Of a stretch of 64,000 nucleotides of DNA, positions 32,149-35,933 are shown piece after piece. The notes under the pieces are model-generated. The model saw only the letters and a program-made list of their open reading frames with translations, ran no database searches and had not been told where the DNA came from. The DNA is taken from NCBI RefSeq assembly GCF_051903065.1, contig NZ_CP178438.1, one strand, 5' to 3'. Positions within the stretch are counted from its first letter, which is position 1. Each line of letters starts with the position of its first letter. Source of the stretch: Escherichia coli (lineage in GTDB: Bacteria > Pseudomonadota > Gammaproteobacteria > Enterobacterales > Enterobacteriaceae). The position numbers were made by a program, and so were the translations under genes.

Positions 32149-33153
32149 GTGAAACTGGATGAAATCGCTCGGCTGGCGGGAGTGTCGCGGACCACTGCAA
32201 GCTATGTTATTAACGGCAAAGCGAAGCAATACCGTGTGAGCGACAAAACCGTTGAAAAAGTCATGGCTGTCGTGCGTGAGCACAATTACCACCCGAACGC
32301 CGTGGCAGCTGGGCTTCGTGCTGGACGCACACGTTCTATTGGTCTTGTGATCCCCGATCTGGAGAACACCAGCTATACCCGCATCGCTAACTATCTTGAA
32401 CGCCAGGCGCGGCAACGGGGGTATCAACTGCTGATTGCCTGCTCAGAAGATCAGCCAGACAACGAAATGCGCTGTATTGAGCACCTTTTACAGCGTCAGG
32501 TCGATGCCATTATTGTTTCGACGTCGTTGCCTCCTGAGCATCCTTTTTATCAACGCTGGGCTAACGACCCGTTCCCGATTGTCGCGCTTGACCGCGCCCT
32601 CGATCGTGAACACTTTACCAGCGTGGTTGGTGCCGATCAGGATGATGCCGAAATGCTGGCGGAAGAGTTACGTAAGTTTCCCGCCGAGACGGTGCTTTAT
32701 CTTGGCGCGCTGCCGGAGCTTTCTGTCAGCTTCCTGCGTGAACAAGGTTTCCGTACTGCCTGGAAAGATGATCCGCGCGAAGTGCATTTTCTGTATGCCA
32801 ACAGCTATGAGCGGGAGGCGGCTGCCCAGTTATTCGAAAAATGGCTGGAAACGCATCCGATGCCGCAGGCGCTGTTCACAACGTCGTTTGCGTTGTTGCA
32901 AGGGGTGATGGATGTCACGCTACGTCGCGATGGTAAACTGCCTTCTGACCTGGCAATTGCCACCTTTGGCGATAACGAACTGCTCGACTTCTTACAGTGC
33001 CCGGTGCTGGCAGTGGCTCAACGTCACCGCGATGTCGCAGAGCGTGTGCTGGAGATTGTCCTGGCAAGCCTGGACGAACCACGTAAGCCAAAACCTGGTT
33101 TAACGCGCATTAAACGTAATCTCTATCGCCGCGGCGTGCTCAGCCGTAGCTAA
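32149..33153 (+). CDS. cra: Catabolite repressor/activator Cra (FruR), 334 aa, GTG start
   Basis: 334-aa ORF (GTG)[58 protein letters not shown]..., LacI family. Confidence 0.97.
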
Positions 33154-33190
33154 GCTGCGAACAAAAATACGCGCCAGGTGAATTTCACTC

Positions 33191-33199
33191 TGGCGCGTA
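33191..33199. repeat. IS1 target-site duplication, left copy (TGGCGCGTA)
   Basis: The identical 9-mer tggcgcgta directly flanks both IS1 ends (33191-33199 and 33968-33976). Confidence 0.9.
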
Positions 33200-33254
33200 G
33201 GTGATGCTGCCAACTTACTGATTTAGTGTATGATGGTGTTTTTGAGGTGCTCCA

Positions 33255-33530
33255 GTGGCTTCTGTTTCTATCAGCTGTCCCTCCTGTTCAGCTACTGACG
33301 GGGTGGTGCGTAACGGCAAAAGCACCGCCGGACATCAGCGCTATCTCTGCTCTCACTGCCGTAAAACATGGCAACTGCAGTTCACTTACACCGCTTCTCA
33401 ACCCGGTACGCACCAGAAAATCATTGATATGGCCATGAATGGCGTTGGATGCCGGGCAACAGCCCGCATTATGGGCGTTGGCCTCAACACGATTTTACGT
33501 CACTTAAAAAACTCAGGCCGCAGTCGGTAA
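33255..33530 (+). CDS. insA: IS1 InsA (91 aa)
   Basis: [91 protein letters not shown]. Confidence 0.97.
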
Positions 33531-33952
33531 CCTCGCGCATACAGCCGGGCAGTGACGTCATCGTCTGCGCGGAAATGGACGAACAGTGGGGCTATGTCGG
33601 GGCTAAATCGCGCCAGCGCTGGCTGTTTTACGCGTATGACAGGCTCCGGAAGACGGTTGTTGCGCACGTATTCGGTGAACGCACTATGGCGACGCTGGGG
33701 CGTCTTATGAGCCTGCTGTCACCCTTTGACGTGGTGATATGGATGACGGATGGCTGGCCGCTGTATGAATCCCGCCTGAAGGGAAAGCTGCACGTAATCA
33801 GCAAGCGATATACGCAGCGAATTGAGCGGCATAACCTGAATCTGAGGCAGCACCTGGCACGGCTGGGACGGAAGTCGCTGTCGTTCTCAAAATCGGTGGA
33901 GCTGCATGACAAAGTCATCGGGCATTATCTGAACATAAAACACTATCAATAA
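33449..33952 (+). CDS. insB: IS1 InsB (167 aa; expressed as an InsAB' transposase by -1 frameshift)
   Basis: [64 protein letters not shown]...; overlaps the insA 3' end in the -1 frame. Confidence 0.96.
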
Positions 33953-33967
33953 GTTGGAGTCATTACC

Positions 33968-33976
33968 TGGCGCGTA
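33968..33976. repeat. IS1 target-site duplication, right copy (TGGCGCGTA)
   Basis: Identical to 33191-33199. Confidence 0.9.
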
Positions 33977-34450
33977 GAGTACGGGACTGGACATCAATAT
34001 CCTTAAAGTAAATAAGACTATTCCTGACTATTATTGATAAATGCTTTTAAACCCGCCCATTAATTAACTCACCAGCTGAAATTCACAATAATTAAGTGAT
34101 ATCGACAGCGCGTTTTTGCATTATTTTGTTACATGCAGAGATGAATTGCCGATTTAACAAGCACTTTTCTTTGCTTTTGCGCAAACCCGCTGGCATCAAG
34201 CGCTACACAGACGCAACAGGGACTGTTAACCGGGGAAGATATGTCCTAAAATGCCGCTCGCGTCGCAAACTGACACTTTATATTTGCTGTGGAAAATAGT
34301 GAGTCATTTTAAAACGGTGATGACGATGAGGGTTTTTTTCTTACAGCTATTCATAACGTTAATTTGCTTCGCACGTTGGACGTAAAATAAACAACGCTGA
34401 TATTAGCCGTAAACATCGGGTTTTTTACCTCGGTATGCCTTGTGACTGGC

Positions 34451-34512
34451 TTGACAAGCTTTTCCTCCGCTCCGTAAACTCCTTTCAGTGGGAAATTGTG
34501 GGGCAAAGTGGG
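34451..34512 (+). promoter_or_regulatory. Pmra promoter (-35 TTGACA 34451-34456, -10 TAAACT 34475-34480) and three MraZ-binding GTGGG direct repeats at 10-bp spacing (34488, 34498, 34508)
   Basis: Direct reading; the repeat arrangement matches the established MraZ operator upstream of mraZ. Confidence 0.8.
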
Positions 34513-34531
34513 AATAAGGGGTGAGGCTGGC

Positions 34532-34990
34532 ATGTTCCGGGGAGCAACGTTAGTCAATCTCGACAGCAAAGGGCGCTTATCAGTGCCTACCCGTTATCGG
34601 GAACAGCTGCTTGAGAACGCTGCCGGTCAAATGGTTTGCACCATTGACATTCATCACCCGTGCCTGCTGCTTTACCCCCTGCCTGAATGGGAAATTATCG
34701 AGCAAAAATTATCGCGTCTGTCGAGCATGAACCCGGTTGAGCGCCGTGTGCAGCGCCTACTGTTAGGTCATGCCAGCGAATGTCAGATGGATGGCGCAGG
34801 TCGATTGTTAATCGCGCCAGTACTGCGGCAACATGCCGGGCTGACAAAAGAAGTGATGCTGGTTGGACAGTTCAACAAGTTTGAGCTGTGGGATGAAACA
34901 ACCTGGCATCAACAGGTCAAGGAAGATATCGACGCAGAGCAGTTGGCTACCGGAGACTTATCGGAGCGACTGCAGGACTTGTCTCTATAA
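34532..34990 (+). CDS. mraZ: Division/cell-wall cluster transcriptional regulator MraZ (152 aa)
   Basis: ORF 34496..34990; the ATG at 34532 gives [50 protein letters not shown]... Confidence 0.96.
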
Positions 34991-34991
34991 A

Positions 34992-35933
34992 ATGATGGAA
35001 AACTATAAACATACTACGGTGCTGTTGGATGAAGCCGTTAATGGCCTCAATATCCGTCCTGATGGCATCTACATTGATGGGACTTTTGGTCGCGGTGGTC
35101 ACTCACGTCTGATCCTCTCGCAGCTTGGCGAAGAGGGGCGTTTGCTGGCGATCGATCGCGACCCGCAGGCTATCGCCGTTGCGAAGACTATTGATGATCC
35201 GCGCTTCTCCATCATCCACGGACCTTTCTCCGCGCTGGGCGAATACGTTGCCGAGCGCGATCTTATCGGCAAGATCGACGGCATTCTCCTCGATCTTGGT
35301 GTCTCTTCACCGCAACTTGATGATGCTGAACGCGGCTTTTCCTTTATGCGCGATGGTCCGCTGGACATGCGTATGGACCCAACCCGTGGGCAGTCAGCCG
35401 CTGAATGGCTACAAACCGCAGAAGAAGCCGATATCGCCTGGGTATTGAAAACCTATGGTGAAGAGCGTTTTGCCAAACGCATTGCCCGCGCCATTGTCGA
35501 GCGTAACCGCGAACAGCCGATGACCCGCACCAAAGAACTGGCGGAAGTCGTGGCTGCTGCAACGCCGGTGAAAGATAAGTTTAAACATCCCGCGACCCGT
35601 ACCTTCCAGGCGGTGCGCATTTGGGTAAACAGTGAACTGGAGGAGATAGAGCAGGCGCTAAAAAGCTCGCTCAACGTGCTGGCCCCGGGGGGGCGGCTTT
35701 CGATCATCAGCTTCCACTCGCTGGAAGACCGTATTGTGAAACGTTTTATGCGTGAAAACAGCCGCGGTCCGCAAGTTCCGGCAGGGTTACCGATGACTGA
35801 AGAGCAGCTCAAAAAACTGGGTGGCCGTCAGCTGCGAGCACTAGGCAAGTTAATGCCGGGCGAAGAAGAGGTGGCTGAGAACCCTCGTGCCCGTAGTTCA
35901 GTTCTGCGTATTGCAGAGAGGACGAACGCATGA
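34992..35933 (+). CDS. rsmH: 16S rRNA m4C1402 methyltransferase RsmH (MraW), 313 aa
   Basis: ORF 34863..35933; the ATG at 34992 gives [42 protein letters not shown]... Confidence 0.96.

Follow-up and report, generated by a model that had tools for sequence, protein, structure and literature searches.

Unaltered Pmra promoter and MraZ operator of the dcw cluster, very probably, downstream of a distal IS1 insertion in Escherichia coli

The promoter Pmra (mraZp) of E. coli K-12, together with its MraZ direct-repeat operator, is the closest known system to the locus described here (Hara 1997; Eraso 2014, as presented in the papers that cite them). In two such papers, E. coli MraZ is described as repressing Pmra via repeats that lie downstream of the -10 hexamer (PMC7761207; PMC8475190). 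MraZ boxes have been defined as GTG(G/T) with 6-nt spacers, and cryo-EM structures have four MraZ subunits contacting four boxes via Lys13, Arg15 and Arg86 (PMC12957436). In B. subtilis repression is lost when the repeats are removed, and it is in the same work that the DXXXR motif is defined as the DNA-binding motif of the protein (10.1101/2022.02.09.479790). Transcription start sites are also available for K-12; Cappable-seq places four + strand starts in the gap between cra and mraZ, at 89143, 89237, 89360 and 89590, with scores of 6.2, 2.1, 9.4 and 27.2 respectively (PMC4782308 supplement), and an older mapping put the start 38 bp upstream of mraZ (Hara 1997, as cited in PMC7761207).

The stretch of E. 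coli DNA analysed here is 64 kb long and is referred to throughout as the window. The + strand sequence of its promoter and operator stretch, cTTGACAagcttttcctccgctccgTAAACTcctttcaGTGGGaaattGTGGGgcaaaGTGGGaataaggggtgaggctggcATG, was read directly, and the following features were assigned to it and to the gene that it precedes.

34451-34456, + strand: -35 hexamer of Pmra, TTGACA, a perfect match to the consensus and the same in K-12.
34457-34474, + strand: spacer of Pmra, AGCTTTTCCTCCGCTCCG, 18 nt, with C34468 as the sole mismatch to K-12 in 81 bp.
34475-34480, + strand: -10 hexamer of Pmra, TAAACT, by direct reading and consensus scan; the same in K-12.
34488, + strand: putative start of transcription at a G, placed from the homologous K-12 start at 89590, the strongest in the gap with a score of 27.2.
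34488-34512, + strand: MraZ operator, three GTGGG boxes with 5-nt spacers, at +1 to +25 by the mapped K-12 start.
34488-34492, 34498-34502 and 34508-34512, + strand: the GTGGG boxes singly, with a period of exactly 10 bp.
34532-34990, + strand: mraZ, with which the dcw cluster begins, encoding 152 aa; Pfam PF02381 in two stretches (E 4e-47), and the same gene name in a genome that is 100% identical.

A first-pass annotation of this DNA had proposed a TTGACA-18-TAAACT promoter and three GTGGG direct repeats with 10-bp phasing, placed immediately upstream of mraZ. Each part of this proposal agrees with what was read; the two hexamers and the 18-nt spacer occupy 34451-34480, the repeats begin at 34488, 34498 and 34508, and 34531 is the final base before the ATG at 34532. 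The spacing falls within the 16-18 nt expected of a sigma-70 promoter, and both its position upstream of mraZ and its orthology to the K-12 promoter identify it as Pmra. In a consensus scan of 33100-34700 this was the top sigma-70-like site, agreeing with the consensus at 10 of 12 positions. Taken by itself the hexamer pair is unremarkable, since a single site with at most one mismatch was found in the 64 kb against 0.35 expected. The triple GTGGG-N5 pattern is remarkable, with one match in the window and none in 100 shuffles. Box 1 begins 7 nt past the -10 hexamer and 19 nt separate the end of box 3 from the mraZ ATG, which places all three boxes after the -10 of the dcw promoter and before the start codon of mraZ. 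They also have the form of an operator as it has been defined for this protein, namely at least three direct repeats with a GTG(G/T) core and a 10-bp period (PMC12957436).

The regulator that would act at these boxes is encoded directly downstream. MraZ is full length in the window and has the two domains of its family (PF02381, AbrB/SpoVT-like), each with its DXXXR DNA-binding motif kept (DSKGR at residues 11-15 and DGAGR at residues 87-91). The single residue that differs from K-12 MG1655 is residue 41 (window 34652), which is His here and Tyr in K-12. The His41 form is shared by strains 23CRST027, 1585m1 and 4/4 under the annotation WP_001295770.1, a protein also annotated in WS3294A and AH21B060. 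Tyr41 of K-12 may be the unusual MraZ allele. An Rfam scan of 32900-35100 returned only a sub-threshold match to the osmY sRNA, within mraZ (34867-34934); it scored 19.9 bits (E 0.14), where the gathering score is 46.9, and is most likely due to chance.

When the four K-12 starts are mapped onto the window by coordinate they fall at 34041, 34135, 34258 and 34488. The last of these, equivalent to K-12 89590, coincides with the opening G of box 1, 7 nt past TAAACT, and gives a leader of 44 nt. A start 38 bp before mraZ, as in the older mapping, would correspond to window 34494, 6 nt away from the position derived from Cappable-seq. Both positions are within the stretch from box 1 to box 2, and with either of them the boxes would be on or just past the start site. 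Further, since the K-12 start maps to the first base of box 1, MraZ bound to the boxes would be expected to occlude the start site. No significant RNA structure was found in the leader region 34481-34540 when its folding was compared to shuffles (z +0.5). Of the three minor K-12 starts upstream of Pmra, the one at 34258 (89360) has a -10 hexamer of its own, TAAAAT, at 34247-34252.

Taken with the published work, this layout suggests how the unit would operate. The sigma-70 promoter would start transcription at about G34488, yielding a transcript that runs mraZ-rsmH-ftsL-ftsI and onward with its 44-nt leader. MraZ, the product of the first cistron, would bind the three boxes in oligomeric form along one side of the helix, the boxes being one helical turn apart between +1 and +25, and the bound protein would block either initiation or escape. 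In this way MraZ would repress its own promoter, a negative autoregulation in which, as far as can be predicted, the IS1 element that lies upstream would alter nothing. The start site is one that was measured in K-12, and binding and repression by MraZ are likewise taken from the literature on K-12, whose boxes are the same as those here. The promoter of this strain would probably behave like that of the K-12 reference.

The comparison with a reference Pmra was made against K-12 MG1655. In the alignment to NC_000913.3, 80 of the 81 bases are identical, and the sole difference is a C at 34468 in place of A89570, a single spacer base which leaves the spacer length as it is. No mutation was found in the -35, the -10 or the repeats relative to this reference. 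The claim that the dcw cluster keeps its promoter intact despite the IS1 thus holds, as the hexamers are those of K-12 and the element is 483 nt away, and so does the claim that the autoregulatory operator is kept, no box base being altered with respect to K-12. Further, if IS1 and one copy of its target duplication are removed, the region from cra through mraZ is collinear with K-12, without indels.

The same conclusion is reached from the E. coli population. Of 5423 complete E. coli genomes in which this region is present, 3520 have the 81-mer of the window, 1309 the K-12 allele and 594 other alleles. The C34468 allele is also that of O157:H7. The example examined among these 594 genomes carries C34486T, the other common allele, which changes the second base ahead of the start site, and across the 5423 genomes the hexamers and boxes are untouched by common variants. 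Since C34468 is the majority E. coli allele it is not a lesion, and since no common variant falls in the hexamers or boxes the promoter and operator of the window represent the majority wild-type form. Strain WS3294A (CP035819, 756-776) has a 5-bp CAGTG deletion, equivalent to 34486-34490 of the window, which takes out the start site together with GTG from box 1 and is the sole operator lesion among the 5423 genomes; this may be either a naturally derepressed mutant or a mistake in the assembly. Close relatives of the window are E. coli 23CRST027 and 23CRST031 (human faeces, Ecuador), with which 24 kb (34000-58000) are 100% identical; in these two genomes that stretch has 22 gene names, including ftsI, murE, murF, murC and secA.

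The upstream side of the gap, where the insertion lies, contains the following features.

32149-33153: cra (fruR), a LacI-family protein, annotated cra in matching genomes.
33168-33199: hairpin 3' of cra, -23.3 kcal/mol, z -6.5.
33191-33199 (left) and 33968-33976 (right): the two copies of a 9-bp target duplication, TGGCGCGTA, by reading of the junctions.
33200-33967, + strand: IS1, IS1A-like, 768 bp, with canonical ends; annotated as an IS1A-family transposase in matching genomes.
33255-33530, + strand: insA, an IS1 gene; Pfam InsA.
33449-33952, + strand: insB' frame; Pfam DDE_Tnp_IS1.
33506-33512, + strand: IS1 frameshift site, AAAAAAC (A6C).

The element is assigned to the IS1 family by its length of 768 bp, its terminal inverted repeats (GGTGATGCTGCCAACTTACTGAT ... 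ATCAATAAGTTGGAGTCATTACC), the presence of InsA and the InsB' frame (PF03811, PF12759 and PF03400) and the 9-bp duplication. It has the same orientation as mraZ, 483 nt separate its right end from the -35 of Pmra, and all four of the mapped K-12 + strand starts of the gap fall downstream of it. The insertion is exactly at the 3' foot of the cra hairpin, with the left copy of the duplication forming the 3' arm; because the 9 bp that were duplicated are those of this arm, the hairpin remains intact on the cra side. A search of the + strand between IS1 and Pmra revealed no convincing intrinsic terminator. The T-runs at about 34333-34339 and 34421-34426 were considered as terminators and rejected, their folds being no better than those of shuffles (z +0.37 and -0.37).

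Insertions at this place are rare. IS1 is found between cra and mraZ in 3 of 5426 complete E. coli genomes, and the same site and duplication as in the window are shared only by 23CRST027 and 23CRST031, both near-identical to the window (2 of 5423). The IS1 copy in these two strains differs from that of the window by a 1-bp deletion; the insB' frame is intact in the window, and the otherwise identical 23CRST027 copy is without one G at 33697 and is annotated as frameshifted, so that the window stems from a close relative and not from the 23CRST027 assembly. Chromosomes of the 23CRST lineage have at least 37 IS1 places each, compared to a median of 11 per genome. In strain 1585m1 (CP086391, at about locus 3126) an IS1B-type element is situated 26 bp downstream of this site and is flanked by an 8-bp duplication, TCAATATC; this insertion is an independent event. 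Strain 4/4 (CP023826, 4374-5568) has an IS5 at CTAA, equivalent to window 34246-34249 and around 200 bp before the -35. This IS5 splits the TAAAAT -10 hexamer of the minor start at 34258 from its -35. All three elements, the IS1 of the window, the IS1B of 1585m1 and the IS5 of 4/4, are upstream of Pmra and oriented with mraZ, an agreement that would arise by chance with a probability of 1/8 and is not significant. No report was found in the literature on an insertion sequence upstream of mraZ, on IS1 at cra/mraZ or on the 23CRST strains.

It might be argued that to call the promoter intact understates a regulatory change, in that IS1 alters dcw expression through read-out from its right end, through a hybrid promoter created where it meets the flanking DNA, by stopping transcription that continues from cra or by moving upstream DNA away. 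The element does point towards mraZ, with no convincing terminator before Pmra; the independent IS1B and IS5 in the same gap have this orientation too, and in a transposon screen insertions with outward promoters before and within mraZ were beneficial under meropenem (PMC11731830). Its right junction also reads TTGGAG (33954-33959), 15 nt, TAGAGT (33975-33980), but this spacer is outside the usual 16-18 nt and the pair was not called by the consensus scan; as a hybrid promoter it was rejected, and it survives only within this improbable alternative. The lack of a convincing terminator means that weak read-out from IS1 is possible, but nothing supports it. The IS1 transposase gene is transcribed weakly and under autorepression, and IS1 has polar effects, all of which counts against such a change. 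So too do the distance of 483 nt to the -35 and the position upstream of every mapped start, the chance value of 1/8 for the shared orientation of the three elements, and the confinement of the insertion to a single narrow lineage (2 of 5423 genomes) whose chromosomes each have at least 37 IS1 places, a pattern consistent with a neutral event. An effect of IS1 on dcw expression is therefore considered improbable. A stronger form of the idea, which we regard as distinctly improbable, is that the co-oriented IS1 is not neutral and, with the IS1B and the IS5, marks the distal part of the cra-mraZ gap as a site at which insertion sequences tune dcw, via read-out or by cutting off cra read-through or the minor upstream promoters. 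Were it true, such tuning could be selected under cell-wall stress, given that extra dcw transcription was beneficial in the transposon screen. From the position of the element it can reasonably be inferred that it acts, if at all, solely via read-through or distal regulation, as the first-pass annotation had suggested.

Two further readings bear on the 81 bp themselves. The periodic G-runs could act chiefly by forming a G-quadruplex, whether in the non-template strand of the DNA or in the mRNA leader, either instead of or besides the operator. On the coding strand, 34490-34521 fits the canonical motif (GGG-N7-GGGG-N6-GGG-N6-GGGG), the window has four such motifs against 0.64 expected under a first-order Markov model, and a conserved quadruplex in mraZ promoters was proposed in 2025 (PMC11796246). 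The loops of this candidate are, however, long at 6-7 nt, and its fourth G-run is the ribosome-binding region, outside the boxes. Long loops generally give weak quadruplexes. Nor would a quadruplex explain the GTG(G/T) consensus or the AAAGTGT boxes of Mycoplasma, which are free of G-runs and still bound by MraZ (PMC12957436). The long loops and the functional Mycoplasma boxes together make this reading secondary at best, and we consider it very unlikely. Alternatively, C34468, as the only difference from K-12 within the 81 bp, could be a functional promoter mutation that alters the strength of Pmra in this lineage. Against this, the base is the one carried by the majority (3520 genomes, O157:H7 included, versus 1309 with A), it falls in a spacer of unchanged length and it is not specific to the lineage that bears IS1, so that this explanation is extremely unlikely. 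We therefore conclude with high confidence that the locus is the known Pmra promoter with its MraZ autoregulatory operator, unaltered, and that the distal IS1 leaves the unit without change. The feature is one already known, in its majority wild-type form. Beyond annotation this matters little. It confirms that the essential operon for division and the cell wall retains its usual promoter and autoregulatory operator in a lineage rich in IS1, so that the element is best regarded as a distal insertion that is tolerated.

The generality of the arrangement was assessed by scanning one genome per bacterial or archaeal species for GTGGG-N5-GTGGG-N5-GTGGG, which returned at least 120 loci. Among the matches listed, 62 of 120 have the start of an mraZ homologue no more than 500 bp downstream on the same strand, as detected by tblastn with E values for MraZ from 1e-7 to 1e-49, and at these 62 linked sites mraZ starts a median of 48 nt past box 3. 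The hosts of the linked sites among the matches listed include Gamma-, Beta- and Alphaproteobacteria, Actinomycetota, Chloroflexota, Firmicutes, Bacteroidota, Planctomycetota, Nitrospinota, Gemmatimonadota and one genome of the candidate phylum Levybacteria. A TANNNT hexamer ending 3-12 nt before box 1 is present at 27 of the 62 linked sites compared to 4 of the 58 unlinked ones, again among the matches listed. The triple GTGGG-N5 pattern is thus specific to mraZ, about half of the matches listed preceding that gene. The linkage to mraZ and the enrichment of TANNNT show that a layout of -10 hexamer, boxes at the start site and then mraZ is widely conserved, in agreement with the literature, and the exact triple pattern can serve to predict mraZ promoters in many phyla.

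Compared to the E. coli K-12 promoter and operator, the unit in the window has the same cra-mraZ locus, -35, -10, spacer length, three GTGGG boxes, leader and start codon; it differs in that K-12 Pmra has no IS1 upstream, whereas in the window one lies 483 nt before the -35. Compared to ordinary intergenic IS1 insertions there is nothing unusual in the element itself, but its site at the foot of the cra hairpin is confined to one lineage. The MraZ boxes described elsewhere are more divergent: three GTGG[A/T]G in B. subtilis, four AAAGTG[T/G] in Mycoplasma and four 7-nt repeats in Burkholderia cenocepacia (PMC12957436; 10.1101/2022.02.09.479790; PMC7761207). The number of boxes is three in the window and four in Mycoplasma and Burkholderia, and the bases that flank the GTG core also differ. 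What these bacteria and the window have in common is a set of direct repeats with a GTG core and a 10-bp period, situated at or just past the -10 or the start site and before mraZ.
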